A stretch of DNA of 60,904 nt from Eubacteriales bacterium. Lineage in GTDB: Bacteria > Bacillota > Clostridia > Oscillospirales > CAG-272. Shown one piece after another: positions 11,165 to 60,904 of this stretch. How positions within the stretch are numbered: the stretch's first letter is position 1; every line of letters begins with the position of its first letter. The notes under the pieces are model-generated. The model ran no database searches and had not been told where the DNA came from. It was given only the letters and a program-made list of their open reading frames with translations. Position numbers and translations under genes: made by a program. The stretch spans positions 1 to 60,904 of the forward strand of contig JAZSOD010000093.1 of the NCBI GenBank assembly GCA_045536775.1, given 5' to 3'.

Positions 11165-11385
11165 CAAGGCGCGCTTGGCGGTAGTGGGCCCCGAGCAGAG
11201 CGCCGCGGTCAGGGCACCCCGACAGGCAATACGCGCGTGAAGCAGAGTGATAATTATAATCTCAACCCATACCCTATAGTCTAATAACATTCAGTGAGTG
11301 GACTAATAACATCTACGTTGCGCAAAGACTAAGTCTTTGCGCTTCTTAAAGCTTTTTGCCGAGGCTTTTTCTCGAAAAAGCCGGA
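11165..11385. repeat. Intergenic repeat block: R1 copy + C palindrome + B hairpin
   Basis: 11170-11302 aligns with 30017-30149 (same orientation) and with 60553-60668 (inverted); palindrome gcgcaaagacNNNgtctttgcgc at 11320-11342; AT-core hairpin at 11364-11383. Confidence 0.9.
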
Positions 11386-11388
11386 AAA

Positions 11389-12075
11389 TCAATCTCTCAT
11401 AGCTTCGCCAAGCTTGCGCCACAGATCGTCTGCAAATTTGTATTCGTCAAGATAACTTACCGTGTGAGGAAGAAAGCCGCAGCGCCTGATAACGCCAGCA
11501 CGGTCGGTCTTGCCTTCACGTTTGCGTATTGCCACCGAGAGCTTGCGCCAGAGGTCTGCCGCCCACGCATACTTGTTCAGATATGCCCGCGTCCCCTGCG
11601 TAAAGCCGCAGATGTTACAAACGTCGTCGGAATAGTACTCCTTCTCGCTTATCTCGCAGATAGCGTTCGGGAGATTCAAGTACGCTGCCGCGTCGGACGA
11701 GTTCATATTTCTCGGACGCACCTCGAAATGTAAGTGCTTGCCCGTAGAGAAGCCCGTGCTTCCCATAATGCCAATAACGTCGCCCGCCTTGACGCGCTGA
11801 CCTGCCGACACCTTGCGCTCGGCAAGGTGACAGTAGTAGATAGTGTTGCCGTCAAGACCCGTCACAGCAACATAGTTGCCCCACTGCCAGGTCGGATTTG
11901 ATTTATCGGTCACCATCTGAGACCAAAGCACGTACCCGTCCGAAACGCTTACCACCTCGTCGGAGTGCTTGCCAACGAGATCAAGACCCGGATGAAATTC
12001 GGACTTACCGAACAGCACGCGGTAACCGTACCTTGACGTAATATGTATATTGCCACATTTAATTGGAAGTATCAC
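11389..12075 (-). CDS. M23 family peptidoglycan metalloendopeptidase (endolysin) with C-terminal tandem repeats
   Basis: M23 motifs HPGLDL and GKHLHFEV; C-terminal repeats ...YLNKYAWAADLWRKL / ...YLDEYKFADDLWRKL; sits in the lysis cassette. Confidence 0.85.
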   Translation of the reverse strand: MILPIKCGNIHITSRYGYRVLFGKSEFHPGLDLVGKHSDEVVSVSDGYVLWSQMVTDKSNPTWQWGNYVAVTGLDGNTIYYCHLAERKVSAGQRVKAGDVIGIMGSTGFSTGKHLHFEVRPRNMNSSDAAAYLNLPNAICEISEKEYYSDDVCNICGFTQGTRAYLNKYAWAADLWRKLSVAIRKREGKTDRAGVIRRCGFLPHTVSYLDEYKFADDLWRKLGEAMRD

Positions 12076-12311
12076 TTTTCTCTCTCCCTTCCGTCGTGAA
12101 ACGATTCGAGCACCGTAACGCGATGCTCAAGCCTGTCTAACTGCTCTCCGTGTGCCTTTATGCGCTCTTTACTTGCCTTCATATTATCATTTAACCCGTC
12201 TATTGAGCAGTTGAGCTTAGTAATGCTCGTGTTAAGCTTGATTATGGGTGTAGCAACTGTAATACCGAATCCAACAAGCGCAACAATGCCGAGGAAAATT
12301 TCCCATGTCAC
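12072..12311 (-). CDS. Small membrane protein with N-terminal TM and coiled coil (lysis-cassette associated)
   Basis: WEIFLGIVALVGFGITVATPII TM followed by a heptad-like region; 4-nt overlap with the endolysin start. Confidence 0.55.
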   Translation of the reverse strand: MTWEIFLGIVALVGFGITVATPIIKLNTSITKLNCSIDGLNDNMKASKERIKAHGEQLDRLEHRVTVLESFHDGREREK

Positions 12312-12323
12312 GCCCTCACCTCC

Positions 12324-12515
12324 TTAACTCAGCGTAACGCCGTATTTGGCGAGTATGGAGACCACCTTGTCGGTGACTATCTTCTTAAACTGACCGGGTG
12401 GGAGCTTTGCAAGCTCGGAAATAAGTATTTCCATATCGGTAGCCTTTTCGGCTTTTTCTTTTACCGCCTTGTTGAAAGCTATGACTCTGTTTCGGAGTTC
12501 ATTGTTCTTCATCAC
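12324..12515 (-). CDS. Hypothetical phage protein (63 aa)
   Basis: Co-oriented and overlaps its upstream neighbour by 4 nt; no recognisable motif. Confidence 0.5.
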   Translation of the reverse strand: MMKNNELRNRVIAFNKAVKEKAEKATDMEILISELAKLPPGQFKKIVTDKVVSILAKYGVTLS

Positions 12516-12841
12516 TCAGTCACTCCCTCTAAAATCATGTCAAGAGCTTCGCCGAGCTCGTCCACTTCGCCCTCAAGAGCCGTGATGCGCTCGTCTGCAG
12601 TAGGTGTCGGCTCAAGAATTTCGGGAGCTTTTGCCTCTACCCATTCACCGTGTATCTTACCGTCACGCTCAACGTATTTCTTTTCGTAATACTTGTCCGT
12701 GTCGGGATAGTCTGTTTCGACAATTTCAAGATACCCCTCGGCTTTGTACTGTTCGGGGCGAGGATTGTATAACTTGTAACCGCCCAATACCATCGGATTT
12801 GGAGCAATTACAAATTTTCCGTCAATAATTTTTCCGTACAT
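12512..12841 (-). CDS. Hypothetical phage protein (109 aa), tail-module position
   Basis: Co-oriented compact ORF with an acidic coiled-coil C-terminus. Confidence 0.55.
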   Translation of the reverse strand: MYGKIIDGKFVIAPNPMVLGGYKLYNPRPEQYKAEGYLEIVETDYPDTDKYYEKKYVERDGKIHGEWVEAKAPEILEPTPTADERITALEGEVDELGEALDMILEGVTE

Positions 12842-12854
12842 GATCTTTTCCTTT

Positions 12855-13409
12855 CTACGATATAAGTGTTATTGAAACGTTGTTATATTCTACAATGTTT
12901 GATCCATCTTCAGGGAGGTTTTGAAAACTGATAACTATCCACGCAGTGTTTTCTCCCGTTGTAAAAACTCGGGCCTTTAAGTCTTCGTTTATCTTGCCGC
13001 CGGTTATGAACCTTAACAGGTTACCGACCGTATCAAATTCGGTAATAAAAACGGTTGACTTGGTCTTTTCCATAAGTCCGTCAAAACCTACTGCATAAGA
13101 AGTATCAGGTGATGATTTCAAATCAAAGCCAACACCATAAGAGCATTGATTCTCTATAGTGGAAAATGAAAACCCGTTTTTATTTTTTTCAAAGCTTAAT
13201 ACATTATTTGGATTATACCAATTGGAATAAGCATAGCCAAGTATAATCCCCTTGCCTGTAAAGCTTCTCTTTGAGGTGTTTGACTGTGCCCCAAAGTTAA
13301 CAACCTCTCTGTTCCCGATGTTAAGTAGATTGGTATTAGCGTTTTTATCCTGAGCGAGTAATATGCTGAAAAACTGTTTGTTCACGCGCCCAGCTCCTTT
13401 GCTACCCAT
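12855..13409 (-). CDS. Hypothetical phage tail-associated protein (start uncertain)
   Basis: 184-aa ORF; an alternative GTG at 13385 would give a GTGA overlap with the upstream stop. Confidence 0.55.
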   Translation of the reverse strand: MGSKGAGRVNKQFFSILLAQDKNANTNLLNIGNREVVNFGAQSNTSKRSFTGKGIILGYAYSNWYNPNNVLSFEKNKNGFSFSTIENQCSYGVGFDLKSSPDTSYAVGFDGLMEKTKSTVFITEFDTVGNLLRFITGGKINEDLKARVFTTGENTAWIVISFQNLPEDGSNIVEYNNVSITLIS

Positions 13410-13738
13410 ACGCCAAGTATCTTATCGTTGAACGGAATAAATGACATGTAATACGTGTATCCGGCGTTAAAGCTGGGCTCGGCTACTGCCCATTCAACAC
13501 TTGCAGGGATGCTCACGCTTATATTTTCACCGGCGGTAAAGCAGACCGACCAGACCTCCGAGAGCTCGCTGTCACCTTTAGCAAACTCGGTAATAGCAAG
13601 ACTTGAAACCGGGGATGAAAATCTGTACTCGGTGTTGCTTGAAAGGGTTAATTCTGCTTCGGAGGAATCCGAGACAATAACCGCACAGGCAGAGTCTTTT
13701 ATTTTGCTTCTTAAAAGAGCATATAATTTCAAATCCAT
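13382..13738 (-). CDS. Hypothetical phage protein (118 aa)
   Basis: Start at MDLKLYALL with SD AAGAAAGGAA; the longer ORF-track start would overlap the upstream gene. Confidence 0.55.
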   Translation of the reverse strand: MDLKLYALLRSKIKDSACAVIVSDSSEAELTLSSNTEYRFSSPVSSLAITEFAKGDSELSEVWSVCFTAGENISVSIPASVEWAVAEPSFNAGYTYYMSFIPFNDKILGVWVAKELGA

Positions 13739-13766
13739 TTTGTTTCCTTTCTTCTGTATAAACAGA

Positions 13767-15614: not shown

Positions 15615-15729
15615 TGTACTTAGCCTCCTCGAGAGCCTCGAGCCTGAGGTCAAGCGCTTCAAGCTTGATTTTTATTTCAGTGTAAATCGAGTCGAGATCA
15701 ACGGACTTGCCGTTATTTTTCTTTACCAT
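15598..15729 (-). CDS. Unlisted 43-aa coiled-coil ORF
   Basis: My translation: MVKKNNGKSVDLDSIYTEIKIKLEALDLRLEALEEAKYNESKK; SD GGAGC upstream; overlaps both neighbours; below the ORF-track size cut-off. Confidence 0.45.
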   Translation of the reverse strand: MVKKNNGKSVDLDSIYTEIKIKLEALDLRLEALEEAKYNESKK

Positions 15730-16300: not shown

Positions 16301-16327
16301 ATAACCTTTCCTTTCTCGCCAAGAGAA

Positions 16328-24760: not shown

Positions 24761-24827
24761 TACTTCATCACTTCACCACGGTGAAGTACTAAATCAAAAG
24801 AAATCGACTTTTAAGGAGAACAAACCA

Positions 24828-25643
24828 ATGAAAAAGTTTTTAGCTATCACACTTGCGCTTCTTATGGCTGTAAGCGCACTTTTCTGCCTTGCAAGCTGCG
24901 GCGAGAAGGCTGACGATACACTCGTATGCGGTGTAACTATTTTTGAAAACATGAACGAAAAAGACGAAAACGGCAATTGGACAGGATTTGAGTCCGATTT
25001 CGCAGTTGAAGTTGGTAAGATCATCGGTAAGAAGGTTGAATTCCAGGAGATCGACTGGGGTCAGAAGTACATGGAGCTCAAGGCAGGCACCATCGACTGC
25101 ATCTGGAACGGATTTACCGCTAACTCCACAGATAAGATAGACGGCGTTGAAACAAAGCGTTCCGACCTCGTTGACTTTACATACGGCTATATGCTCAACC
25201 AGCAGTGCGTTGTTATCAAGGCTGATAACAAGGACGCTATCAAGTCCGAGGCAGACCTTGCAGGCAAGAAGGCAGGCGTTGAAAACGGAAGCGCAGGCGA
25301 AAGCTACGCTGCAGGCGTTGTAGGAGAAACGGGTAGCCTTGAAAAGTATCCTGCTCAGAACAAGGCATTCCTCGAGGTAAAGACAGGTGCCGTTGATTTC
25401 GCAGTTATGGATATCGTTCTTGCAAAGAACGTATGCGGACAGGGCGACTACGCAGACCTTATGATAGTTGAAGACATCGTTCTCGATTCCGAGATCTACG
25501 CTATCGGCTTCACAAAGGGAAGCGAGCTCACCGCACAGGTAAATGCGGCTATCAAGACTCTCTTTGATAACGGTAAGATCGACGAGCTTGCAAAGAAGTA
25601 CGGCTTTGAAAACGTAGTTCAGCTTGTTGAAACTATCGAATAA
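24828..25643 (+). CDS. Amino-acid ABC transporter substrate-binding lipoprotein
   Basis: Start at MKKFLAITLALLMAVSALFCLASCG (lipobox, SD AAGGAG); family-3 SBP-like body; strongly biased codon usage. Confidence 0.8.
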   Translation: MKKFLAITLALLMAVSALFCLASCGEKADDTLVCGVTIFENMNEKDENGNWTGFESDFAVEVGKIIGKKVEFQEIDWGQKYMELKAGTIDCIWNGFTANSTDKIDGVETKRSDLVDFTYGYMLNQQCVVIKADNKDAIKSEADLAGKKAGVENGSAGESYAAGVVGETGSLEKYPAQNKAFLEVKTGAVDFAVMDIVLAKNVCGQGDYADLMIVEDIVLDSEIYAIGFTKGSELTAQVNAAIKTLFDNGKIDELAKKYGFENVVQLVETIE

Positions 25644-27144: not shown

Positions 27145-27151
27145 TATTTTT

Positions 27152-27193
27152 GAATACAAAAAGGACAGAGAGTTCTCTGTCCTTTTTGTATTC
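27152..27193 (+). terminator. Long perfect hairpin terminator
   Basis: gaatacaaaaaggacagaga / tctctgtcctttttgtattc palindrome directly after the ATPase stop. Confidence 0.75.
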
Positions 27194-27194
27194 A

Positions 27195-27640
27195 AAATTG
27201 CAGAAAATAGCCTTCTCCTGAGGGTAGCGAAGCGGCACCGAGGTAGTGAATGATATGCCGGCGGCATATCAGAGCCGAGGTGTGACCGAGTCGCAACGAG
27301 ACAAGGGGGACCGCGACAGCGGTGGATGAGGAGTTGCATTAAGTTTTATGACACCTCATCCGTCAAAGTTTTGCGAAGCAATACTTTTTGACACACTTCT
27401 CCCACTGGAGAAGGCTATTACACATTATTTTTTGTGTAAATGAAATTCTTTGTTTTTACGGGTCGCCGGTCCGTTACAATCGGTTTGAACAAATGTCCGT
27501 TCAAACCGTACGAAAACGGCGGCAGCAAGCCACCGCCCTACGATGGAATTTCGTTTTTTCTTGTAGGGGAGGATATCATCCTCCCGTTCAAATTTCCACC
27601 AATGTTGGCGGTATGAGTCGGGGCGTCCCGACGGGCATTA
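27195..27640. repeat. Intergenic repeat block: 13-bp TIR pair, R4, R2
   Basis: aatagccttctcc at 27206-27218 is the exact reverse complement of 27407-27419; R4 at 27223-27295 matches 39351-39423 inverted; R2 at 27413-27640 matches 34423-34650. Confidence 0.9.
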
Positions 27641-29584: not shown

Positions 29585-30235
29585 TGGTATGGGAATAAAA
29601 GCAAATTTGCGCAGACAATGGGGCATGGGTGAAAATTTCACTTGCCGCAAAGTAAAATGCGCGTTTGAAAGTTTTTTGCGTCCTTTTTTACAAAAAAGGG
29701 CAAAGGTGCGAAGCACCGTAATAATAAAAGCAAATTTAATGAAACTCAAGTTAGAGAGGAGACTATAACCTGATTATGCTTTGTGATAAAATGGGGACGG
29801 GGTGTTCATTTCTGTATGCACAGAGAACGATAAAAGATTGCCTTCGGCAACTTTCCAAAGAATCACTTAAGGGCGAGACTCGAGGTCTCCCCTTAAGAAA
29901 CCCCTCTCGCAAAAGGGGATACCCCTTTTGAAACCCCGGCGAAGCGGTTATTTTTTCGCTATGTGGGGTCTGAGGACGCAAGGCTTCGTGTTTTTGCCAA
30001 ATTTCCACAGATTAGCCCTGCTTGGCGGTAGTGGGCCCCAAGCAGAAGGGCGCGGTCGGGGCGCCCCGACGGGCGATACGCGCGTGAAGTAGAGTGGAAA
30101 TTATAACCTCCACCCATACTCTTTAGTCTGATAAAATTCAGAGAGCGGGCGAGTGTAATTCCTTGCCCTATTGGAAGTTTTTGGGGCGACTTTTTTCAAA
30201 AAGGCGCAATCCAAAACCTACTTTAGCGTAAAGCC
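29585..30235. repeat. Intergenic repeat block: R5 + B hairpin + R3 + R1 + B hairpin
   Basis: 29598-30010 aligns colinearly with 47493-47900; 30017-30149 is an R1 copy of 11170-11302; AT-core hairpins at 29682-29699 and 30186-30207. Confidence 0.9.
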
Positions 30236-30237
30236 GC

Positions 30238-33420: not shown

Positions 33421-33572
33421 CATAAATTCAAAATCTCTTGTAGGTGAGGCTATTAACCTCCCGCAAGAACGAATAATTTTATCTAAACAAAAAATAATGT
33501 TGAGATAAAAAACATCTCAACCCATCCTTAAAGGTTTTTGGGCGACTTTTTCTCAAAAAGTCGCAAAATTCC
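33421..33572. repeat. Intergenic repeat block (caaatctcttgtagg module + B hairpin)
   Basis: aattcaaaatctcttgtaggtgagg recurs at 39322-39340 and 46248-46268; perfect AT-core hairpin gcgacttttt-ctc-aaaaagtcgc at 33542-33564. Confidence 0.8.
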
Positions 33573-34232: not shown

Positions 34233-34249
34233 TCTTTTGCAAAAACTTA

Positions 34250-34692
34250 AAGGAGTGCAAAGACACGTCTTTGCGCAATCTTAAGGCTCCCTCCCAGAGG
34301 GAGCTGTCGCCGAAAGGCGACTGAGGGAGAGAGCGATGCTTTGATTTTGTCTGACAAAATCTTTTGCTACGAAGGCTCCTTCCGTCTTTGCCTTTGGCAA
34401 ATCCACCTCCCTCTCGGAGGGAGGCTATCAAACATTATTTTCTGTGCAAATGAAATTGTTTGTTTTTACGGGATGCCGGTCCGTTACAATCGGTTTGAAC
34501 AAATGTCCGTTCAAACTGTACGAAAACGGCGGCAGCAAGCCACCGCCCTACGATGGAATTTCGTTTTTTCTTATAGGGGAGGATATCATCCTCCCGCCCA
34601 AATTTCTACCAATGTTGGCGATATGGGTCGAGGTCACATTTGTCGCAAACTTCACGCGCTTATCGCCCGCGGGGGCGTCCCCGCCGAAAGGA
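34250..34692. repeat. Intergenic repeat block: C palindrome, A(+)/A(-) modules, R2
   Basis: Palindrome at 34255-34276; A(+) at 34286-34335; central hairpin at 34343-34365; A(-) at 34374-34425; R2 at 34423-34650 matches 27413-27640. Confidence 0.9.
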
Positions 34693-39185: not shown

Positions 39186-39475
39186 GGTTGGCTTTACGGT
39201 CGGGACGCCCCGACAGGCAAATAGCGCGTGAGGTATAGGAGTAAGCGAGGTATCAACCCATACCGCCAACATTGGTGGAAATTTGAACGGGAGGGAAAAC
39301 CCCTCCCCTACAAGATGTTTCCAAATCTCTTGTAGGGGACGACGGTCTACTGCGACTCGGTCACACCTCGGCTCTGATATGCCCCCGGCATATCATTCAC
39401 TCCCTCGGCGCCGCTTCGCTACCTCGACGTCCCGTAAAAACAAACGATTTCGTCAAATCAAAATCAGTTCATACT
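39186..39475. repeat. Intergenic mosaic repeat block (R1 part, inverted R2 parts, inverted R4)
   Basis: 39198-39262 resembles the R1 3' part; 39262-39335 is the inverted R2 3' part; 39351-39423 is inverted R4; 39428-39460 is the inverted R2 5' part. Confidence 0.85.
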
Positions 39476-39594
39476 CCAACGAAAAACATTTTTTCATCTT
39501 TTTCTATTTACATCCCCCCCTTAAATGTGTTATCATTAACCAAACGGAAAACTCCGTTTGACTAAATCTTCTTTATACACACGGGAGGAAAGAT

Positions 39595-41253
39595 ATGGAA
39601 AGGTTTGTAAGCAGATACGAAGACGTCTGTGCCACAGACAAGAAAGCTTTTCTTGACAAAAATGAGCTTTTGCAAAAAGCTCCGGATGACATTATCGAAA
39701 AACTCGAAGCAGAGTTTGAAAAAAGGAAGACGGCTATACTTAACACCGAGAGCAAGTGGGAGCTTGGTGCTGGCGGATACGTTCGTTACATCTCTATGAC
39801 CGAGGGCGACGACTCAAGCGACGGCCTCACACCAGAGACCGCATGGAAGACCATCGACAAGCTTCACGCGGCTCAGAAGGCGAAAACCGTCAGAGCAGGC
39901 GACGTAGTCCTCTTTAAGCGCGGAGATGAATGGCACCAGAAGCTCAAGTGCGCGGAGGGTGTTACCTTCTCAGCTTACGGCGAGGGCAGAAAGCCCCGTA
40001 TTCTCGGCTCGACAGAGGCTGACCGCCCTGACCAATGGCTTGAAACCGACATCCCTAATATATATAAATTCAGCAAAACAGTCTGTTGTCTAAATCCCGC
40101 GGGGAACAACATTCGTTGCAAAGGTGACGTTGGAAACATCGTTTTCAACGACGGAGAATGCTACGGCATGAGAGTTATCAAAGACGTGAACAAGGATATC
40201 ACTCTCCACGCAGGAAGCGATCACCTCGTTTCAAACGGCATAAAAACGTGGCTCTTCCCCCCTCGCGAGTTTGCAAGTTATAAGGACCTCGCGAAGATCG
40301 CAGCCGACATTCCCGAAGCTGACCTTATGTACTACGAAAGCCTCGAAACAGGCGAGCTTTTCCTCTACTCGCGCGAAGGCAACCCCGGCAAGCGCTTCTG
40401 GTCCGTCGAGCTTTGTACTCACGAAAACGCGCTTCACGCGTGCTCAAACGTAACCATCGACAACCTCTGCATCAAATACACGGGCTCGCACGGCGTTGGT
40501 GCAGGCTCGTCGAAAAATCTCACCGTACGCAACTGCGAGATAGGCTTTATCGGCGGTGCTATTCAGTATATCACCCCCAAGGGTGGGATCGTCCGCTATG
40601 GTAATGCCGTTGAGATCTACGGAAAAGCTAACGGTTTCTACGTTTACAATAACTATATGTACCAGTGCTTCGACTGCGGACCGACAGCACAGTGGTCGGG
40701 AGCTCTCACCGAGGGCAAGCAACTAATTTCGAGAGACGTTCACTTCTACGACAACGTACTGCGCGAGGCATCGCTCGAGGTTTGGTATTCCACTCGCTCG
40801 GAAATCACGGACAACACCTACTGCAAGCTTATAAACTGCCGTATGTACAACAATATGGTAACGGGCTCGGGTACCGGCTTCAAGGCTTACAACCACCAGA
40901 AGTACGAATGGTGTTCATTCTACGGCGGTCCCGCAACCAACGCACCCTACATCGACTGCTATATGGAGGACAACTACTTCTGGGGCGAGCGCCGTCATCT
41001 TATGAAATGCGTTCCTACCACCACGATGAAGGACCACGGATTCATCTGGCAGAACAACGTGATAATTCACCCGAAGGACGAGGGCTCTATCGGTCTTCTC
41101 GGCGAAGACTTCGCGAGTGGCAGCGGACGTAACGTTCAGTACTTCTATGATGAAGAAACTCTCAAAATGCTTGTTGACGCAGGCACGTTTGGCTTTAACT
41201 ACTTCTACTATACACCGGGAGACAAGGCAAACAAGCGTTATTTCATCGGTTAA
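39595..41253 (+). CDS. Hypothetical protein, probable right-handed parallel beta-helix fold
   Basis: No signal peptide; periodic N/G/C-containing repeats (NVTIDNLCIKYTGSHGVGAGSSKNLTVRNCEIGFIGG) typical of pectate-lyase-like beta-helices. Confidence 0.45.
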   Translation: MERFVSRYEDVCATDKKAFLDKNELLQKAPDDIIEKLEAEFEKRKTAILNTESKWELGAGGYVRYISMTEGDDSSDGLTPETAWKTIDKLHAAQKAKTVRAGDVVLFKRGDEWHQKLKCAEGVTFSAYGEGRKPRILGSTEADRPDQWLETDIPNIYKFSKTVCCLNPAGNNIRCKGDVGNIVFNDGECYGMRVIKDVNKDITLHAGSDHLVSNGIKTWLFPPREFASYKDLAKIAADIPEADLMYYESLETGELFLYSREGNPGKRFWSVELCTHENALHACSNVTIDNLCIKYTGSHGVGAGSSKNLTVRNCEIGFIGGAIQYITPKGGIVRYGNAVEIYGKANGFYVYNNYMYQCFDCGPTAQWSGALTEGKQLISRDVHFYDNVLREASLEVWYSTRSEITDNTYCKLINCRMYNNMVTGSGTGFKAYNHQKYEWCSFYGGPATNAPYIDCYMEDNYFWGERRHLMKCVPTTTMKDHGFIWQNNVIIHPKDEGSIGLLGEDFASGSGRNVQYFYDEETLKMLVDAGTFGFNYFYYTPGDKANKRYFIG

Positions 41254-41302
41254 AAGCGATTTATAAGTTATATCAATAGCACTGACGTGCTTTGACCGAC
41301 AC

Positions 41303-41335
41303 AAAAAAAGGAAGCGGAAAATCCGCTTCCTTTCT
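41303..41335. terminator. Bidirectional terminator
   Basis: Stem ggaagcgg/ccgcttcc flanked by A7 and a T-rich tract between convergent genes. Confidence 0.75.
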
Positions 41336-41345
41336 AATTTTGATT

Positions 41346-43004
41346 TTACGGTTCAAGTGCGTCGGGGAAGAGGTCGAAGAACCACTCGTTGTATTGATAT
41401 GCAAGACTTCCGGCTTCGGTGAACGAAATATAGCCTGATATCGTTTCGTCTACCTTGAGCTCTGCAATCGCATTTGCAAGCCAAGCATCAAACTGTGCGT
41501 AAGAAACGTTTTCAAGCTCTGCAAAATACTTAGCACTTATGTCTGCAACTGCCTGAATGCTCTCTGCGCTTATAAGGTCTTCATATACGAAACCGAAGTA
41601 AGGGGCGTCTCTGAGCTCAAGGTTCTGAGCCTTGCAGTCCTCCCAAACGGTAGGATACGAGCCCTCGGGCGGATATGCGATGAACATATTTCCTGTGTGC
41701 TCAAGCTTCATATCATAATCGTCGTTTATCTTAACTACAACTCCGTCAACGTCGCGCTTATAGTGAACTCCCTCTATACCGTAACCGAAGATGTTGCGAA
41801 GCTCCTCGTCGGTGTTGATCGCGGTGAGTATCTGCATAGCTCTCGAAAGATCTTTAGTGTACGCGGAGATAGCGAACATATCGTTGTAGATGGAATTGTC
41901 AACGTAGGGCTTCTGGAGAACCTTTACGTCGTACTGTTCTGCATACTTCGCAGCATCTGCCGCGTTACCGCGGATAACGCCTACTGCGAATTCGCCAATG
42001 TCTGCCGTTCCGTCACCGAGGTAACCGAAGGACTCGTACTTCTTAAGAAGTCTGAGATGGTCAACATACGCGTTGGACTGGAATATAATTCTCGGAACAC
42101 CGTATGCGTTTGCGTTCTTGTATGCAGAGGTGGAAAGCGCGTTACCTACTACCGAGGGCTTACCGTCGGGAGTAAAGAACTGTACTCCGAGGCATTCAAA
42201 TTCGCCGAGGACAGGAACTATGCCGGGCTCATTTCTGCCGATGTCCATAATGAACTCATCTGCCATTTCAAACTGTGTTATAGAGTCGGTATCGTAATAA
42301 TACTTGTCCATAAGAGCCTTGTTGAGAAGGAGATAAGTATATTCGCCTACAGGCTTGTTGTTGATGACCGCATAGTTAATACCGTCGAGCTTGGTCGCGT
42401 CAAGAATGTTGGGATGGATATAAGTCTTAAGCTTCTTGCCCGTTGTGCCGAGCTCGCTGTCGAGCATGGAGAGGTGCTCCTCGCTAACGTACTTAAGATA
42501 TGTATCGTAATCGGGAATATAGAAGATATCAAGCTGATCGTCTTCAACCTCGGGATAAACTATCTCGGGGATACCGATCTCGTTCAGAACCGTTACGTCC
42601 TCGTAAACCGTTTCCTCTTCCTCTTCTTCAAATACAAGTCCGAGAAGCTTATCAAGGGTTACCTTGTTTTCTTCAGCCTCTCTCTTTGCCTGTATCTCAG
42701 AAACCTCTAAGATACGCGCTTCAAGAGCCTCTATGTACTCGTCCTCGGTAAAGAGGTTAAGCTTGATGTTGGTCTTGAAGTCCGCCTTTGTTTTCTCGCT
42801 CATTGCCGCTTCAACGAGAGCAACCGCCTCATCGGTGGTGTTTTCTCCCTTTATGCCCCACAGCGTTATGGTCATCGCGTGAGTTGTAGTATCACCCTCG
42901 TTAAACTCAAGAGTTTTGTCAATTTCCTCTTCTCCGCAAGCAGTTACGAAAACCGTCGCAAGAAGAACGAGGGCTAAAAGTAAGCATTGTAATCTCTTTT
43001 TCAT
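41346..43004 (-). CDS. Extracellular solute-binding lipoprotein (ABC transporter family 1, large type)
   Basis: Lipobox LLATVFVTACG; 552 aa; no permease genes adjacent; strongly biased codon usage. Confidence 0.65.
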   Translation of the reverse strand: MKKRLQCLLLALVLLATVFVTACGEEEIDKTLEFNEGDTTTHAMTITLWGIKGENTTDEAVALVEAAMSEKTKADFKTNIKLNLFTEDEYIEALEARILEVSEIQAKREAEENKVTLDKLLGLVFEEEEEETVYEDVTVLNEIGIPEIVYPEVEDDQLDIFYIPDYDTYLKYVSEEHLSMLDSELGTTGKKLKTYIHPNILDATKLDGINYAVINNKPVGEYTYLLLNKALMDKYYYDTDSITQFEMADEFIMDIGRNEPGIVPVLGEFECLGVQFFTPDGKPSVVGNALSTSAYKNANAYGVPRIIFQSNAYVDHLRLLKKYESFGYLGDGTADIGEFAVGVIRGNAADAAKYAEQYDVKVLQKPYVDNSIYNDMFAISAYTKDLSRAMQILTAINTDEELRNIFGYGIEGVHYKRDVDGVVVKINDDYDMKLEHTGNMFIAYPPEGSYPTVWEDCKAQNLELRDAPYFGFVYEDLISAESIQAVADISAKYFAELENVSYAQFDAWLANAIAELKVDETISGYISFTEAGSLAYQYNEWFFDLFPDALEP

Positions 43005-46189: not shown

Positions 46190-46357
46190 AACCTTCCTCC
46201 TTTCTGCGGTAACCGGGAGGAGCAAGCCCCTCCCCTACGGTGCAAATTCAAATCTCTTGTAGAGGCGACCATCGGTCGTCCGTTTGCGATGAAATTTGAC
46301 ATATAATATTTGTTTTTGGGTCGCCTTTTTTCAAAAAGGCGTAAAGCCAACCAAGCT
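46190..46357. repeat. Intergenic repeat block (caaatctcttgtag module + B hairpin)
   Basis: 46248-46268 matches 33427-33450 and 39322-39340; AT-core hairpin cgccttttt-tc-aaaaaggcg at 46322-46341. Confidence 0.8.
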
Positions 46358-47439: not shown

Positions 47440-47935
47440 TATACGCATATTTTGTGAAAAACACTTTTTTATTTTTGTGGGGAAGTTTGTATTTGCCAAA
47501 TTTGCACAGACGATGGGGTCTGGGTTTGCACAGATAAACGGGTATGGGTTGAGGTCTCACTTGCCACAAAACTAAATGCGCGTATAAAAGTTTTTGCGCC
47601 ACTTTTTTCAAAAAGTGGCAAAGGTGCGAAGCACCGTATAATAAAGTACATTAAATTTGATGAAGCAAGATTGTGTGTAGAGAGATTATAACCTAATTTT
47701 GTTTGGTGATAAAATGGTATTGGTTGTTCATTTCTGTTTGCACAGAAACGAACCAAAGAAGCACTAAAGGGGAGACTCGATGTCTCCCCTTTAGAATCCC
47801 CTCTCGCAAAAGGGAGGTATCCCTTTTGAAACCCTCGCGAAGCGTTTGTTTTCTCACTATGTGGAGTCCGTGGACGCAAAATCAAGTTCTTGGAGACGCT
47901 GAGATCATCCTAAATTGTAAACTATTTTCTCAATC
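47440..47935. repeat. Intergenic repeat block: R5 + B hairpin + R3
   Basis: 47493-47900 is colinear with 29598-30010; B hairpin at 47598-47619; ggtgc-gaa-gcacc hairpin shared with 29705-29717. Confidence 0.9.
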
Positions 47936-48041
47936 TGTTGAAGAATGAGGATATTTGTGGTATCATTACTCTGTACGTGTGTTCTTTATCCACAACACCC
48001 GAGCATATAATTCTGTAAGAACAAAAAACGGAGTGTGGGAT

Positions 48042-54754: not shown

Positions 54755-54859
54755 TTATAAGGCTTGTCCTTTCGGAGAATCTTCATTTAATATATACATT
54801 ATAGCACAAGTTTTGCTAAATGAAAATAGGTTAGTAAGAAAAGTTGTTTTTGCTTAGAG

Positions 54860-55300
54860 GGGGAGTGTGACCTAATTTTGTTTTGCGGAAATTTGCGTTG
54901 GTTTTGTTCATTTCTGTACGGACAGAAACGAACCAAAGAGGCATTTAAGAGAGAGGCGCGATGCCTCTCTCTTAAAAATCTCTCTCCTCGCCAAAGGGAT
55001 TCTCCCTTTGGAAACCCTGCGACACGCTTCTTTACACGTAAAATAGAGTTTGAGAGCGCAAATTTAAGCCCTATGCTTCCTCAAAGCATAAATTTGAAAC
55101 ACAAATTTCAAATTTTATAAAACTTAGCGTTTCGGGGATTCCAAAGGGGTTTACCCCTTTGTGCCGTTTTGCGGAGGGGAGTCCGAGGGGAACCCAATCG
55201 GAAGGGTTCCTCCTCGGCGGTTCTTTGGTTCATTTCTGTCCGTACAGAAATGAACAAAACCAACGCAAATTTCCGCAAAACCAAATCAGGTCCACAACTC
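54860..55300. repeat. Two R3 copies in inverted orientation (about 420-nt imperfect palindrome)
   Basis: Arm 54871-54939 versus the reverse complement of 55219-55290 differs at about 3 positions; the inner parts are also inverted R3 sequence but more divergent. Confidence 0.9.
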
Positions 55301-55318
55301 CTTCGAGACAAAAACTAC

Positions 55319-55789
55319 TCACTTCCCGAAAGCTTCAAAAAGTCTTTCTCCTATCTCCGCATACTCTCCCTGACAGTTTACAAACACCACCAGATGTCCG
55401 CTTACAAAAATTTCCGACTCAATACCTGCCGAATACTTGAGAGTCCTCGCCCGACGCTCACACATTTTTACTATTGACGGAGTGTCCGTGGCGTTGACGG
55501 CGTAGAAAACGGCGGCGTCGCCGCCCGCATAGCGCTCGGAATACCACACCTGCATATATTCGACAAGTGAAAACTCGTCGGGCTCCTTGCCGCCGCGCCC
55601 GTAAAGAGCTGTCAGCTCGCGCGGCACGGAAGCACCCGAAAACGGCTCAAACGTCACGAGCTTTCCGCCAAAGCCCTCCACCGCACCCGAAAACTCAGCG
55701 TCAATATCCGCAAATCTTACCTCCCCGCACGAAGAAAAAATAACAACGCAGGCAAATAGAAGTCCGCACCACCGTAAAAGCAAGCTCAA
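55319..55789 (-). CDS. Hypothetical lipoprotein
   Basis: Lipobox-like FACVVIFSSCGE; 156 aa. Confidence 0.5.
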   Translation of the reverse strand: MSLLLRWCGLLFACVVIFSSCGEVRFADIDAEFSGAVEGFGGKLVTFEPFSGASVPRELTALYGRGGKEPDEFSLVEYMQVWYSERYAGGDAAVFYAVNATDTPSIVKMCERRARTLKYSAGIESEIFVSGHLVVFVNCQGEYAEIGERLFEAFGK

Positions 55790-55899: not shown

Positions 55900-55928
55900 T
55901 TGCAAATAAAAACCAAAAGAGGTAGAAT
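55900..55928 (+). promoter_or_regulatory. Sigma-70-type promoter (TTGCAA-17-TAGAAT) with a long leader to the S-layer gene
   Basis: -35 at 55900-55905 and -10 at 55923-55928; about 215 nt upstream of the ATG at 56143. Confidence 0.5.
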
Positions 55929-56142
55929 GTACTCAAGATCTTACGAGAGTATGAATTTGCTCCCCGTACGAATTGCCGTAAATAAGCATCGTAGTTACTA
56001 AACGGTGTTTAATATTACAGTAATCTTACAAATACGGAAAATATATTGCAAATATCCATATCTTGACGTAAGATATACACAGGTAATTAGCGGAAAAACC
56101 GCGAAGTTAACCTCAAAAACTATTTTTTAAGGAGAAAGAACT

Positions 56143-59100
56143 ATGAAAAAGTTTCTTGCACTCATCCTTGCAGTTCTTATGATCGCAGGTAGCGCAGTTT
56201 CCGTAGCAGCGTTTGACGACGTTAGCGGAAAGTACGCTGATGCAATCAACGGACTTCAGGCAACAGGAATCGTTGCAGGTACATCTGAGACAACATTCAC
56301 TCCCGATGCACTTGTAACAAGATGGCAGATGGCTCTCTTTATGGCTAGAGCAGCTTCTGCAGTAACAGACGACGCAGACTGGGCAGAAGGCGCTAAGATC
56401 TTCACAGACTGCACACAGTACCTCGGAGCTATCCAGTACTGCTTCGGTAGAGGAATCATCAAGGGCGTAACAGCTACTGAATTCGCTCCTGACAACAACA
56501 TCCTCTTCAGAGACGGTATCATCATGGCTATCCGTGCTCTCGGTTACGAGAAGGAAGACGAGGGTCTTGAAGCAAGCGCTAAGAAGTACAACAAGACAGG
56601 CGCAGCTTACTGGACTCCTTACTACGAGAGAGCTATTGAGCTCGGCCTCCTCGAGAACCTCGGCAACGTAGCAGTTGACAAGGCTCTCACACGTGCTGAA
56701 ACAGCTCAGCTCATCTACAACATGCTCTACACACCCGTTTACGCTAAGGACGGCGCTAACACCAACAACTACACTCTTTACGATGTAGCATTTGGTGGCA
56801 AGGCAATCGTTGAAGTTGAAAACTCCATGAAGGCATGGGTTGCTGAAACTCCCGGCTACTTCTTCGGTACAAACGATACACTTGATGCAGACGATGAAGA
56901 AATCGTTATCGCTTGGAATGAGTATGACGAGGATGCTGAGGCATACACAGTTGAAACAGACAACGTTACATTCGACGAGCTCACAAAGTGGGGCGTTGAC
57001 GTTGAGAACATCGACGAGTACTTCGCAGCTGCTCTCGAAATCATCAACTATGATAAAGATGACGTTTCTGACTTCGAGTACCTTGCTAACTTCGAAAAGG
57101 TAGCTCCCAAGGCTCTCACAAACGCTGACGTTAAGTTCACTTACAATGCTGATGACTCCATCAAGTACGCAAAGATCGGTACAAAGACTCACTACGAAGC
57201 AGGCGATGGCGAAAAGAACGAAATCGCTCTTTACACAGTTGATACTGCAGACGACGATCTTGACGAGATTGTATACGCAGCAACAACATTCGAAGCTATC
57301 GACGGCAATAACTACGATCTCGTAGTTTACGACGTTGACGGCGACAACTACTTCGAGTACGGTTACGTAAACTTCTACAAGATGGACGTTTACGAAGAAG
57401 CTAACACCAAGGGTGTTGAGCAGTTCGGCGATATGGACGGTCTCACAGAGGTTGTTTACTCTGAGACACTCAAGGAAGGCGACGTATTCGTTTACGCATT
57501 CGACCTCGCTACAAAGACTGTATCCGTTAAGGAAGTTGTTGAAGCAGCTACCGGTAAGATCACAGGCTACAGCGAAAAGAAGACTGACGACGGTATCGTA
57601 GGTTACGTTACTATCGGCGGCACAAAGTACACAATCGATCCCGCTGCAAACAACCCTATTACCATCGTTGATGACGGCGAAACAGGAATTGATGAAACTA
57701 CTGCTGACGACCTTAAGACAGCTGCAGCTGCAGGTATAGCAAAGACATACGAATACTACACTCTCGGCGGTAAGCTCGTAGCATTCGGTAAAGAGATTAC
57801 AGAAGAAGCTGCTGTTAACTACCTCATTATCAAGGACTTCACAGACTTTGAGCTCTACGATCACGTTGTAATGACAGCATTCATCGACGGCGAAGACAAA
57901 GAAATCAAGGTTCAGAAGATTACAAGAATTAACAAGGAAACCGGCGAAGCTCTCCCTGCTTCTAAGCTCAACACTAAGGGCTACAGTGCTCTCGCAGCAG
58001 AGCTCCAGGGTCTCTTCGGTATCTACACATACACTGTAGACGCAGACGATTACTACACCCTTACGGAAAAGCCTCTTGCACATGATGTTGCTGACTTTAT
58101 TGGCAGCGACACTGCTATCAAGTTCAAGGATGGCGTACAGACAAACGCTAAGGTTTCTGCTGAAGAAGAAGAAGATGGCCTCATCGCAAGAAACAAGATG
58201 CTCAGACTCAGTGCTGACACTGCTATCTACCTCATCGACACAGAGCAGGAGAAGATTACAACTGTTGCAGCAAAGACATCCGGCGAATTCGAAATCCCCG
58301 TAGCTGCAACCGCTAAATTCTACGCTGACAAGATCGGTTTCGGTCAGGAAAATATTTCTGATGAGTGGACAACAGGTGTTGCAAGCGTTATCTATATCGA
58401 AGCTAATGGAGCAAAAGACGCTATAAATGCAGCTAACTACAAGCTCATCTTCGTTCAGGAAGAAGCTGCTGACCTCGAGCTCGGCACAGCTGCAGGCTTC
58501 GGCATCAAGGATACTGACGGTGACGAAACTAAGGACCAGGCATACGTTAAGTACGACGTATCTGACAAGGCATTCGTTCTCTCTACATTCGCTGGCGTAG
58601 ACACTGTTTACGTTGAGAAGGGAGAAAACGTAGCTCCTCTTGCAGATGGTGCATACGTAATCGACGCTGAGGGCAAGGTTGTTGCAAGCAAGTCTCTCGA
58701 TGATATCAAGGCTGCTGCTAACGGAGATATCTACCTCACAGTTACCGATGCAAGCCTTACCGGTACCGCAAAGTTCTACTTTACAGTAGCTGAAATTGCA
58801 TCTACAGAAATCGACCTCTACAACTACGCCGATATCAGAATTGACGATGCCGACAATGTTGTTCAGTTTGATACTCGTGATGCTGCTAGAGCAGATGCTA
58901 ACAGCCTCAAGGCTAACATACAGACTCTCCACTTCATGGATCTCACAATCAATGAAGATGATGAGATTGTAACAAAGTTCTACGATGCAACTGTAGCTCC
59001 TACAGTTAAGCCCGCTCTCATCAAGCTTATGGAAGACTATGAAGCTGATGATGAAACTGTAAAGGTTATCTACGCTAGTAACAAGGCAAACGCTGCTTTC

Positions 59101-59166
59101 GATTACAAGACTGCAGTTGCTAACAAGACTCTTAACGCAGTAATCATCAACAACATCGGTGAGTAA
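56143..59166 (+). CDS. S-layer homology (SLH) domain surface protein, probable S-layer protein
   Basis: Signal peptide; three N-terminal SLH repeats (FDDVSGKYADAINGLQATGIVAGTSETTFTPDALVTRWQMALFMARA etc.); acidic 1007-aa body; extreme codon bias. Confidence 0.85.
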   Translation: MKKFLALILAVLMIAGSAVSVAAFDDVSGKYADAINGLQATGIVAGTSETTFTPDALVTRWQMALFMARAASAVTDDADWAEGAKIFTDCTQYLGAIQYCFGRGIIKGVTATEFAPDNNILFRDGIIMAIRALGYEKEDEGLEASAKKYNKTGAAYWTPYYERAIELGLLENLGNVAVDKALTRAETAQLIYNMLYTPVYAKDGANTNNYTLYDVAFGGKAIVEVENSMKAWVAETPGYFFGTNDTLDADDEEIVIAWNEYDEDAEAYTVETDNVTFDELTKWGVDVENIDEYFAAALEIINYDKDDVSDFEYLANFEKVAPKALTNADVKFTYNADDSIKYAKIGTKTHYEAGDGEKNEIALYTVDTADDDLDEIVYAATTFEAIDGNNYDLVVYDVDGDNYFEYGYVNFYKMDVYEEANTKGVEQFGDMDGLTEVVYSETLKEGDVFVYAFDLATKTVSVKEVVEAATGKITGYSEKKTDDGIVGYVTIGGTKYTIDPAANNPITIVDDGETGIDETTADDLKTAAAAGIAKTYEYYTLGGKLVAFGKEITEEAAVNYLIIKDFTDFELYDHVVMTAFIDGEDKEIKVQKITRINKETGEALPASKLNTKGYSALAAELQGLFGIYTYTVDADDYYTLTEKPLAHDVADFIGSDTAIKFKDGVQTNAKVSAEEEEDGLIARNKMLRLSADTAIYLIDTEQEKITTVAAKTSGEFEIPVAATAKFYADKIGFGQENISDEWTTGVASVIYIEANGAKDAINAANYKLIFVQEEAADLELGTAAGFGIKDTDGDETKDQAYVKYDVSDKAFVLSTFAGVDTVYVEKGENVAPLADGAYVIDAEGKVVASKSLDDIKAAANGDIYLTVTDASLTGTAKFYFTVAEIASTEIDLYNYADIRIDDADNVVQFDTRDAARADANSLKANIQTLHFMDLTINEDDEIVTKFYDATVAPTVKPALIKLMEDYEADDETVKVIYASNKANAAFDYKTAVANKTLNAVIINNIGE

Positions 59167-59201
59167 TTTATAATTAAGTTACTCAATATGAGTTGATCAT
59201 T

Positions 59202-59233
59202 CGCCCCCTCGGGTTTCCGAGGGGGCGTTTTTT
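59202..59233 (+). terminator. Strong rho-independent terminator
   Basis: 11-bp GC stem cgccccctcgg/ccgagggggcg followed by T6. Confidence 0.9.
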
Positions 59234-59387
59234 GTTTCATATTTCAAAGACAATTATTTGTACTCTGCAATTAACCGTTTTCTTGGCTCAATACTTGACA
59301 AAATACTATCGCGTTGGTATAATATATTCTATGTAAGAATGATTATTATGCGGTATTATGCCTTGCAGTCGAGAGGAGTTGTCACAA

Positions 59388-60452
59388 ATGAAAATAGCGG
59401 CAGCGTTAAGCGGCGGCGTTGACAGCTCTGTTGCGGCGTATCTACTGAAGCGCGATGGCTTTGACCTTTGCGGAATGACCTTCAGAATGCTCGATAATGA
59501 CGGCTTTTTGGACGGCGACACTCCGTGTATGACGGATGAAGACGTTATTTCTGCGCGTGACACGGCGGCAAAGCTCGGCATACCGCACTACCTTTTTAAC
59601 TACGGCGAAAATTTCAAGCGCGACGTGGTGGATAACTTCGTTTCGACCTACCTCGCAGGCGGAACACCTAACCCCTGTATTGAATGTAACAGATGCGTAA
59701 AATTTGGCGCGCTCCTTGCTCACGCTGAGGAGCTTGGCTACACTCATATAGCAACGGGTCACTACGCGAGAGTCGAGTATGACGCAGGCTCGGACAGGTA
59801 TCTCCTGAAGCGTGCGGCTGACCCTGCAAAGGATCAGACCTACGTTCTGTATACTCTCACGCAGGAGAGGCTTTCCAAGATAATACTGCCTCTCGGTGGA
59901 TACACCAAGGACGAAATACGCGAGCTTGCGCGTGAAAACGGCTTTAAGTCGGCGGACAAGCCCGAAAGTCAGGACATCTGCTTTGTGCCGGACGGCGACT
60001 ACGCCGCTTTTATAGAAAGATACACGGGAAAACCCGACGTGCAGGGCGATTTCGTCGACTGTGACGGCAATATTCTCGGTACTCACAAGGGAATAACCCA
60101 TTATACCGTTGGTCAGGGCAAACGGCTGGGTATTGCGATCGGCAGAAAGGCGTTCGTTTGCGATATTGACCCCGTTAGCCGCAGGATCACCCTCGGTGAC
60201 AACGATATGCTTATGAAAAGCAGTCTTGATGCAACGGATGTAAATATTATTGTGGCAGACAGAATCCCCGACGCCGCACGCGTCGAGGTCAAGATAAGAT
60301 ATGCGGCAAAGCCCGCGCTCGCAAAAGTGTGGCAAACGGGCGAAAACTCCGTACACGTTGAATTTGACACACCACAACGCGCTATAACACGCGGTCAGTC
60401 CGTGGTTATGTACGATGGCGATACTGTCGTTGGTGGTGGGAAGATTATATAG
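59388..60452 (+). CDS. mnmA: tRNA 2-thiouridine(34) synthase
   Basis: Start at MKIAAALSGGVDSSVAAYLL (PP-loop SGGxDS); catalytic Cys context NPCIECN. Confidence 0.9.
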   Translation: MKIAAALSGGVDSSVAAYLLKRDGFDLCGMTFRMLDNDGFLDGDTPCMTDEDVISARDTAAKLGIPHYLFNYGENFKRDVVDNFVSTYLAGGTPNPCIECNRCVKFGALLAHAEELGYTHIATGHYARVEYDAGSDRYLLKRAADPAKDQTYVLYTLTQERLSKIILPLGGYTKDEIRELARENGFKSADKPESQDICFVPDGDYAAFIERYTGKPDVQGDFVDCDGNILGTHKGITHYTVGQGKRLGIAIGRKAFVCDIDPVSRRITLGDNDMLMKSSLDATDVNIIVADRIPDAARVEVKIRYAAKPALAKVWQTGENSVHVEFDTPQRAITRGQSVVMYDGDTVVGGGKII

Positions 60453-60454
60453 TT

Positions 60455-60904
60455 GGCTTTACGCGTTTGAAGATTTTATGCCGCTTTTTGAAAAAAGCGG
60501 CGCAAAAACTTCAAATAGCGCAAAGACATGTCTTTGCGCGACGCTGATGTAACTCGTCCACACTCTAAATTTTATTTAATGTCAGGGTATGGGTTGAAGT
60601 TATATTTGCCGCAGAACTTCACGCGCGCTTTGCCCGTGGGGGCGTCCCCACCCGCCAAGCAGGGCTTGACATCCAACAATAAACAAACGCGTTAAAACGA
60701 AATTATGCGTCCCCAGACTTCGCACAGCGTGAGGATAAACGTTTCGCCGGGGATTCAAAAGGGGCGGGTAGCACCCGCTGGCATGGAGCGCGTATTGCTT
60801 TGCGGCAAGTGAAATCTTAACCCGTACCCTGATATTTCCAAAAGCCTCTCACTTTGGGAGAGGTGGCACGCGAAGCGTGACGGAGAGGGTCCCCTTTTGC
60901 GAGA
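60455..60904. repeat. Intergenic repeat block to window end: B hairpin, C palindrome, inverted R1 (with deletion), inverted R3 part, inverted R5, A(+)
   Basis: B hairpin at 60480-60501; palindrome at 60518-60539; 60553-60668 is inverted R1 lacking about 30 nt; 60706-60772 is the inverted R3 3' part; 60785-60835 is inverted R5; A(+) at 60842-60893. Confidence 0.85.

Follow-up and report, generated by a model that had tools for sequence, protein, structure and literature searches.

Structured repeat modules in the spacers of an uncultured Oscillospiraceae genome, and a core motif among them that recurs in other phyla

Extragenic repeats of the REP, BIME and REPIN kind, known from Enterobacteria and Pseudomonas and mobilised there by RAYT, are short palindromic units that form mosaics in both orientations. 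They stand after stop codons, between convergent genes and as inverted doublets, reach high copy number within one lineage and occupy different sites in its relatives. The same traits were found in the intergenic spacers of a chromosomal segment of 60,904 nt (contig JAZSOD010000093.1, the 61-kb window below) from an uncultured member of the Clostridia (Oscillospiraceae type), including an inverted doublet of an a-type and a b-type copy of one repeat, R3. We consider it fairly probable that the repeats in these spacers are selfish DNA of the general REP/BIME-MITE kind, in several structured and non-autonomous families, none of them belonging to a described family. The 3' core of R3, which is predicted to form a pseudoknot, was found well beyond this lineage.

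An earlier note on this DNA had called the repeats REP/BIME-like. This is right as an analogy of behaviour, but the palindrome and tetranucleotide features of REP were not found. REP units form one family of 20-40 nt, whereas here there are many unrelated families of 25-230 nt, and the GTAG-type 5' tetranucleotide was not seen in the alignments and sequences. R3 differs further by its predicted pseudoknotted multi-helix fold and by its Firmicute (Oscillospiraceae) host. Regarding RAYT, no transposase-like gene was present among the window genes checked, and no gene family recurred near the copies in the window and in the 8-kb loci from other assemblies which, with the window, made up the comparison data. 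Unlike BIMEs with, for example, an IHF site, the inverted R3 doublet (54845-55320) has structured arms of 200 nt and no recurrent linker motif. Of the MITE traits, only this doublet has inverted termini (98 nt), and single copies are without terminal inverted repeats. BOX elements of Streptococcus pneumoniae (boxA-boxB-boxC) and the ERIC and Correia MITEs are likewise modular, foldable intergenic repeats that lack an open reading frame (ORF) and can carry promoter or terminator activity on their neighbours. However, no fixed A-B-C order exists here, and the R3 core is conserved across phyla, while theirs are not.

The repeat network was mapped with a repeat finder and a sensitive self-BLAST of the window, using direct and inverted matches. 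The result was a dense web of direct and inverted similarity, nearly restricted to spacers, which linked in both orientations those at 11.2, 27.2-27.6, 29.6-30.2, 33.5, 34.25-34.7, 39.2-39.45, 46.3, 47.5-47.9, 54.85-55.3 and 60.45-60.9 kb. Matching pairs include 27394-27623 and 34404-34633 (91%), 27223-27295 and 39351-39423 (96%, inverted), 29606-29981 and 47525-47879 (75% over 385 nt), and 54842-54939 and 55222-55319 (86%, inverted). After correction of the gene map by hand, 2866 of the 3011 bases in self-repeats (95%) fell outside coding sequence, and repeats occur in eight of the nine spacers longer than 250 nt, with a coverage of 48-89% in each. Noncoding DNA totals 7.1 kb, and repeats make up 40% of it, a lower bound that counts only within-window similarity, so the earlier estimate that modules occupy most of the noncoding DNA was overstated. 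The mosaics of common hairpin modules in changing orders and orientations were recovered by both programs in ten of the eleven spacers first named; the spacer at 37.7-37.9 kb had no repeat match. The modules R1, R2, R4 and A, the AT-core B hairpins and the C palindromes all proved to be real repeats, and the same modules are multi-copy in sister metagenome-assembled genomes (MAGs), so they are not restricted to the window. The hairpin-1 pattern had seven matches against 0.00 expected, which excludes chance. Such ORF-less, hairpin-rich families have probably expanded in one genus of uncultured Oscillospiraceae, and the mosaics would arise as units insert beside and into one another and then recombine.

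Three hairpins that had been quoted as an example of conserved pairing were found where the earlier note placed them, and all three are the same helix, P2, of R3. The R3 copies of the window are these.

47665-47885, minus strand: complete a-type R3 (alignments, pair counts and strand test); in sense order 5' body, P3, P2 (47764-47794), pseudoknot strand, UCUUUGG, P1 (47724-47759) and a 3' tail with TTATCA-N16-TATAAT; promoter-like site at 47712-47685, terminator-like P2 with U-run
29740-29985, minus strand: a-type R3 between the U32 peptidase gene and hflX, P2 at 29866-29897
54845-55065, minus strand: a-type R3 arm of the tail-to-tail doublet, P2 at 54945-54975, P1 at 54904-54939
55105-55320, plus strand: b-type R3 arm of the same doublet, P2 of the GGAACCC..GGGUUCC type, P1 at 55222-55257
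60702-60764, plus strand: inverted fragment of the R3 5' body, matching 29922-29980 and 47821-47882

R3 copies align over about 230 nt, at first eight of them and then seventeen from this genus. The element is a single unit of that length with a predicted pseudoknotted 3' core, not a string of independent hairpins. An orthologue of the doublet at 54845-55320 is present in locus L006 (L numbers denote compared loci). In the copy at 29740-29985, P1 is broken at 29832-29859 by a 25-nt mini-hairpin with a C(UUCG)G loop (GATTGCCTTCGGCAACTTT). This mini-hairpin recurs alone in L001 (212-239, 96%), L006 and L008, and thus behaves as a tiny unit that moves independently.

That pairing is kept through compensatory changes was borne out for R3. 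RNAalifold found three hairpins in the R3 alignment, with double compensatory changes in 19 of 36 pairs. In the 17 copies of this genus, the structure including the pseudoknot had 95.6% of cells paired against 85.7% after shuffling (0/500), the pairs changed on both sides were 20 against 12.5 in shuffles (0/500), and the covariation score was 0.412 against 0.227 shuffled and at most 0.15 in slid controls, for copies that are related to each other and with a shuffle control that ignores their tree.

The helix quoted earlier was right, but the folded strand is the opposite of the one quoted. The reverse complement of the first quoted reading was more stable in 61 of 63 copies, by about 9 kcal/mol on average, and shuffle-normalised z-scores also favour this sense strand, which is the minus strand at 29.7, 47.7 and 54.9 kb and the plus strand at 55.1-55.3 kb. 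The predicted helices of the 63 copies contain 345 G-U pairs on the sense strand and 63 on the other, a 5.5-fold excess, and a G-U pair stands at a fixed position of P1 in 48 of the 63 genome copies and in about 95% of metagenome copies among the matches listed. This asymmetry rules out simple maintenance of palindromes at the duplex level, and with it the earlier suggestion of selection on a folded single strand holds.

The sense-strand 3' end of R3 runs from a segment of 4-7 nt through (U)UUCUUUGG to P1 (GUUCGUUUC.. loop ..GAAAUGAAC), and the invariant core consists of UCUUUGG and the long hairpin P1 with its conserved G-U. The segment is complementary to the P1 loop and covaries with it, in the pairs GCUG/CAGC, GCCG/CGGC, AUUG/CAAU, GUCG/CGAC, ACGC/GCGU and CUUGAU/AUCAAG. 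Over 137 unique copies the longest helix between loop and upstream sequence had a mean of 4.58, against 3.43 ± 0.07 in 1000 permutations. By this covariation the R3 core is a pseudoknot, in which the 4-7 nt segment pairs with the P1 loop across the UCUUUGG linker.

The pyrimidine linker UUUCUUU also matches the P1 purine strand AAAGAAA in parallel register. From this match we infer that linker and P1 probably form a major-groove triple helix of U-A-U and C+-G-C triples, and such a helix would explain why the sequence of the stem, not its pairing alone, has stayed the same between Oscillospiraceae and Fusobacteriota. Copy L002a has U for C in the linker and, at the predicted pair, U-A for C-G (columns 212, 249:260), and variants with an extra U in the linker (UUUCUUUU) have an extra A-U pair in P1 (AAAGAAAA). 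Both kinds of variant agree with the predicted triple-helix register.

Other explanations for P1 were tried and rejected. P1 contains an AUG, sometimes with GGAG before it, which might be the sequestered start of a lost transposase or type I toxin; the reading frames in question are 2-70 aa long and unconserved, no ORF begins at this AUG in the copies examined, and Ilyobacter has AGU instead through a compensatory change. P1 also resembles a 28-nt palindromic CRISPR repeat or a tracrRNA, but is never arrayed.

The core was then followed outside the genus. A scan of a genome collection with the P1 pattern, for which about 0.5 chance matches are expected, gave 69 loci, and at least nine Oscillospiraceae or Eubacteriales MAGs had 5-12 matches apiece. 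Beyond these, the core was found in Bacteroidales, Saccharibacteria, Flavobacteriaceae, Fibrobacter, Fusobacteriota (Ilyobacter) and others; a few matches (Vagococcus, archaeal) look like chance. A metagenome scan gave at least 120 loci with at least 131 copies from gut, sediment and soil samples, while viral contigs of IMG/VR had none, and a phage origin was rejected on this ground. The R3 core is therefore not specific to one lineage but spans Bacteroidales, Fusobacteriota, Saccharibacteria, Flavobacteriaceae and many metagenomes.

The core families differ in their 5' bodies and have the last 40-45 nt in common. They include an environmental type (about 196 nt, 95% identity), two AT-rich gut types and a Bacteroidales type (about 150 nt); most are about 190-200 nt long, and in each family both the 5' and the 3' end are fixed, with neither an ORF nor a linked gene. 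Copies were also found nested in loops or stems of other copies. A SINE-like retro-element was rejected as the main model, as the 5' ends are fixed and show no graded truncation. Ilyobacter polytropus DSM 2926, which is cultured and has a complete genome, carries the core at six places on its megaplasmid pILYOP01, among them an unannotated one at 224000-224048 (L194) between a VWA-domain gene and a photolyase gene. The one copy that was read has GUUAC../..GUAAC in P1, where a compensatory change has eliminated the AUG. The plasmid database holds no annotated core copy, and no annotated feature lies under the Ilyobacter match.

In Bacteroidales MAGs (L011, L013, L024, L049), the core element of about 150 nt is followed by an unrelated repeat rich in GCTTCG..CTCGCAATGACGCGAAGCG hairpins, so mosaic spacers are found in Bacteroidales too. 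Gut contigs L079, L160, L164, L166, L167 and L170 have a variant hairpin, TTTTTGGTTCATTTTTCTTTT..AAAAGAAAAACGAAC, with the A-C/G-U asymmetry on the opposite strand, which could be a separate subfamily or decayed copies.

The positions of the modules were compared with related MAGs. By HflX, the best relatives of the window are MAGs labelled Clostridia, Ruminococcaceae or Eubacteriales; the closest compared assembly was GCA_045580165.1 (JAZNNG; HflX 96%, DNA 85-90%), followed by GCA_054275895.1 (JAZOHF, 92%) and, farther away, GCA_017482465.1 (81%). L001 and L002 carry the same modules at different places. The spacer between the U32 peptidase gene and hflX is 666 nt in the window and 233 nt in L001, and the surplus is R3 and R1, with the whole stretch 29740-29985 missing from the L001 spacer. 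Conversely, L002 has a tail-to-tail R3 doublet (9185-9604) between two convergent genes where the window has an empty spacer of 92 nt (41254-41345). The HD-dnaG junction is about 23 nt in the distant L003 but 170-290 nt of modules in three close genomes, and the module content of the Maf-nth spacer differs between relatives. Since modules lie at different sites, and filled and empty sites exist for them across related MAGs, the spacer repeats appear to be, or recently to have been, mobile DNA.

The genes hflX-Impact-HD-dnaG-sigma70 are contiguous in L001, L002 and L003 and split in the window. Three synteny breakpoints fall in repeat-laden spacers (27145-27637, 39186-39594 and 47465-47954), and two of them have inverted copies in common, 27223-27295/39351-39423 (96%) and 27559-27618/39256-39315 (88%). 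Together this suggests that the split was a repeat-mediated rearrangement.

The same breakpoints against L001, L002 and L003, and the 96%-identical inverted copies at two of them, would also be expected if the spacers were neutral debris, duplicated and shuffled by recombination, with hairpins perfected by template-switch (quasi-palindrome) correction. But template switching predicts perfect Watson-Crick stems without strand bias, against the G-U excess of 345 to 63 given above, and the covarying long-range pairing of loop and flank, the core sequence conserved across phyla and the discrete element ends do not fit it either. This explanation is already disfavoured, and we think it very improbable.

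No described family could be named for the repeats at the beginning, and our searches gave the same answer. Rfam 15 had no match in the window at the gathering threshold and none at the motif in 25 loci; HEARO, RAGATH-18, IS605-orfB, Clostridiales-1, Clostridiales-2, twister, pistol and hatchet gave no match at threshold. At E<=10, three representative copies had scattered chance matches only, for example Clostridiales-2, which reached 22 bits in one copy (threshold 58.6) and was not repeated in another. A literature search by organism and repeat terms and by sequence strings gave nothing on these repeats. Analogies to attC, dif and IS91 targets were rejected because order and sequence do not fit; the terminal GAAC, for instance, is TAAC in Ilyobacter.

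Covarying multi-copy motifs suspected to be selfish are a recognised class, the mobile/repeat sequence candidates (MRSC; PMC11109978). MRSC-65-2, from the surveys of the Breaker laboratory, is like R3 in its multiple copies, strong covariation, inconsistent gene orientation and wide phyletic spread, and members of the class, suspected selfish elements, may act as DNA or RNA. It differs in being a single long stem with UYCCGG repeats, while the R3 core is a hairpin and a predicted pseudoknot with UCUUUGG (PMC11109978). The R3 core is thus a distinct motif within this class. The guide-RNA scaffold of TnpB combines a pseudoknot with a triple helix (PMC13639567). In the TnpB omega-RNA (reRNA), as in R3, the conserved structured block ends at the element boundary, and the predicted pseudoknot and triple helix resemble this scaffold; for this reason an RNA-level fold is favoured, and by this analogy we give it about an even chance.

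A fold of R3 as single-stranded DNA is somewhat doubtful in our view, yet the corresponding reading of the elements is a serious rival. It says that R3 moves as single-stranded DNA, as hairpins like those of REP/REPIN or IS200/IS605 PATEs, to which a Y1 HUH transposase (RAYT or TnpA) from another place in the genome binds, and that the covariation of the 4-7 nt is a pairing of guide and cleavage site as known for IS608. PATEs are also non-autonomous and ORF-less, with sharp ends and neither terminal inverted repeats nor target-site duplications. The strand-specific hairpins, in which one stem position keeps an irregular G-T, the sharp ends without terminal inverted repeats on single copies, tiny self-moving units such as the 25-nt UUCG hairpin, copies inserted into loops of other copies, the BIME-like mosaics and the placement after stop codons and between convergent genes are all in its favour. 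Mini-hairpins of GCGAAGC, read from the sequence, are frequent in the modules, and d(GCGAAGC) is an unusually stable DNA hairpin.

Insertion of IS200/IS605 elements is coupled to the lagging-strand template and strongly oriented, whereas the orientation of core copies relative to the local majority gene strand, an indirect proxy for replication direction, was random (17 vs 19 and 36 vs 35), and lagging-strand-coupled insertion was rejected for this reason. No transposase, TnpA, TnpB or IscB ORF lies within 3.5 kb of the 63 genome copies and 131 listed metagenome copies (about 190 together), which also disposes of an IscB/HEARO or TnpB right-end RNA. With no linked tnpA, tnpB or iscB and no orientation bias, the elements were kept out of the TnpB guide-RNA family. 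Moreover, the covarying partner is a hairpin loop and not a cleavage site in the flank, and a polypyrimidine linker parallel to a polypurine stem strand is the classic layout of an RNA pseudoknot-triplex. On balance we hold the single-stranded-DNA movement to be rather unlikely. A truncated TnpB (Cas12f1-like TNB domain) lies in L080 at 4582-5177 beside a RAGATH-18 RNA, about 6 kb from two core copies, and has no physical linkage with these.

The genes beside the copies belong to no recurring protein family; they are ordinary ones such as transporters, SecA and fmt/def. In the wide set, the orientation of the core to the flanking genes was random, with (+,+) 20, (+,-) 20, (-,+) 11 and (-,-) 18. 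Among Oscillospiraceae alone, a modest excess of copies had a co-oriented gene upstream of the sense strand (34 vs 17 opposed). Of the 18.5 kb scanned, the site most like a terminator is P2 with the UGCUUCUUUGG that follows it on the sense strand, and the a-type R3 tail TTATCA-N16-TATAAT points outward at the HD gene (10/12 matches) and at hflX (9/12). Some R3 copies here thus probably also affect neighbouring genes.

Such signals would be expected if the modules were kept for the host, as terminators, insulators, stabilisers of mRNA 3' ends, promoters or paralogous small RNA genes, with their spread being secondary. The placement of the composite E1 (below) 1-8 nt after stop codons, always co-oriented, and copies at orthologous sites across MAGs (L023/L026/L037; L029/L038) also fit this explanation. 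However, the neighbouring genes are mutually unrelated, orientation in the wider family is random (20 vs 18 above), sister species differ in presence and absence at the same housekeeping genes, and nested insertions and such copy numbers are what selfish elements usually show. The terminator-like feature of P2 and U-run is absent in the gut-A and Ilyobacter families, and in B hairpins the T-run is inside the stem, not behind it. As the terminator- and promoter-like features are not conserved across families, they are treated as lineage-specific side effects, and a primary benefit to the host seems improbable.

Several observations weigh against mobile selfish repeats with an R3 core that acts as a folded RNA. 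Neither the window genes checked nor the neighbourhoods of copies yielded a mobilising gene, so the case for mobility comes from comparing which sites are filled and which are empty, and not from an insertion event that was observed. Divergence between orthologous spacers is too great to define a target motif or target-site duplication; the single filled/empty pair shows no duplication, with flanks that are likewise highly diverged. Given the random orientation (17 vs 19; 36 vs 35), a role as RNA would need a promoter of the element's own, and none is conserved across families. The proposed triple helix stands on sequence logic and two or three covarying variants, and pairing of UCUUU with a purine run upstream of P2 (helix 162-166/211-215) fits the alignment equally well. 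Finally, strand asymmetry is slight in the modules other than R3, with R1 and A as weak exceptions.

In the selfish-repeat explanation, which we prefer, the R3 core would most likely be the handle by which an enzyme encoded at another place in the genome recognises the element and copies or moves it. We tentatively go one step further, although we regard it as unlikely: the core (pseudoknot strand, UUUCUUUGG linker and P1 with its G-U) might be a cross-phylum class of structured RNA outside Rfam, a triple-helix pseudoknot that closes the 3' side of ORF-less elements of about 200 nt and serves as the handle of an unlinked RNA-binding mobilisation or guide system, e.g. a trans-acting nuclease, recombinase or reverse transcriptase. 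If this is true, Oscillospiraceae spacers are a natural 'graveyard and nursery' of such RNAs. The repeats would give the REP/BIME paradigm a Firmicute counterpart with very high module turnover and synteny breaks at repeats, which is relevant to the rearrangement of gut Clostridia genomes and the fragmentation of their MAGs. The R3 core is among the more widely spread conserved nucleic-acid motifs outside Rfam, with copies from at least five phyla and from metagenomes of gut, sediment and soil. With a clean tertiary model and a cultured host of complete genome, I. polytropus DSM 2926, the partner enzyme and the RNA or DNA nature of the element are directly testable.

The modules other than R3 are listed here.

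30020-30148, minus strand: R1 (self-BLAST and repeat finder; also in the sister MAG JAZNNG), with a GCUUGG..CCAAGC hairpin, a GUCGGGGCGCCCCGAC palindrome, CGCGCGUGAAG and a variable hairpin, ending in ACCCAUAC
11173-11301, 39194-39270 (partial) and 60552-60666 (inverted): other copies of R1
47525-47587, strand unassigned: R4, GGGUAUGGGUUGAGG..CACUUGCCACAAA..GCGCG (self-BLAST and repeat finder)
29606-29665, 34619-34661, 60585-60627 and 60788-60829 (inverted): other copies of R4
27394-27623: R2, 230 nt with four hairpins; second copy at 34404-34633 (91%)
39253-39315 and 33460-33500: inverted partial copies of R2
27223-27295, plus strand: A, 73 nt, GGUAGCGAAGCGGC..GAUAUGCCGGCGGCAUAUC..GAGUCGCA; inverted copy at 39351-39423 (96%)
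60453-60545, plus strand: post-stop composite E1, in the order TTGGCTTTACG, B hairpin (GCCGCUUUUU GA AAAAAGCGGC) and C palindrome (GCGCAAAGAC..GUCUUUGCGC)
46290-46350, 30165-30237 and 11305-11388, all minus strand: other copies of E1
33529-33567, 29668-29720 and 47586-47638: B alone
34239-34277: C alone
46214-46287: module between the HD-domain gene and dnaG, common to L001 (1113-1189 and 6718-6792) and L002

R1 was about 3 kcal/mol more stable on the minus strand (the strand of the copy at 30020-30148), consistently across orientations, and A had a strand asymmetry of 7 kcal/mol that flips with orientation. The asymmetry of R4 was weak or inconsistent, and R2 and E1 showed no consistent one. 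The few JAZNNG loci examined hold several copies each of R1, R2, R4 and the post-stop composite, with eight matches for R4; R2 also matches in JAZNNG, JAZOHF and JAZSNX. Matches of A are present in other genera of Oscillospiraceae, and a few other modules match other genera as well.

E1 starts 1-8 nt past the stop codon of a co-oriented gene in four cases of the window and in L001, L002, L006 and L008. Likewise, the motif (G/T)TGGCTTTACG, usually followed by the B hairpin, occurs at 39188-39198 (plus), 46340-46350 (minus), 60453-60463 (plus) and 30227-30237 (minus), always 1-8 nt after the stop codon of the co-oriented gene, as it does in the same four loci. The post-stop placement of E1 is a new regularity.

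The genes of the window are housekeeping genes, namely hflX, nth, cinA, dnaG, ribF, mnmA and those for a U32 peptidase, a sigma-70 factor, a YgiQ radical-SAM protein and an SLH surface protein. Two convergent ORFs of 552 aa each (39595-41253, plus; 41346-43004, minus) are kept in L002 and L003. They matched no NCBIfam family except for one weak match to lacto-N-biosidase, and one of their neighbours in L002 has a faint beta-helix match. A sub-threshold Rfam match to 'Spot 42' at 59153-59234 (plus; 38 bits against a threshold of 80) is an intrinsic terminator (GCCCCCUCGG..CCGAGGGGGC and a U-run) after the SLH-domain gene. A 75% match between 24809-24882 and 56125-56200 spans a ribosome-binding site and ATGAAAAAGTTT, and most likely represents two similar starts of signal-peptide genes outside the repeat network.

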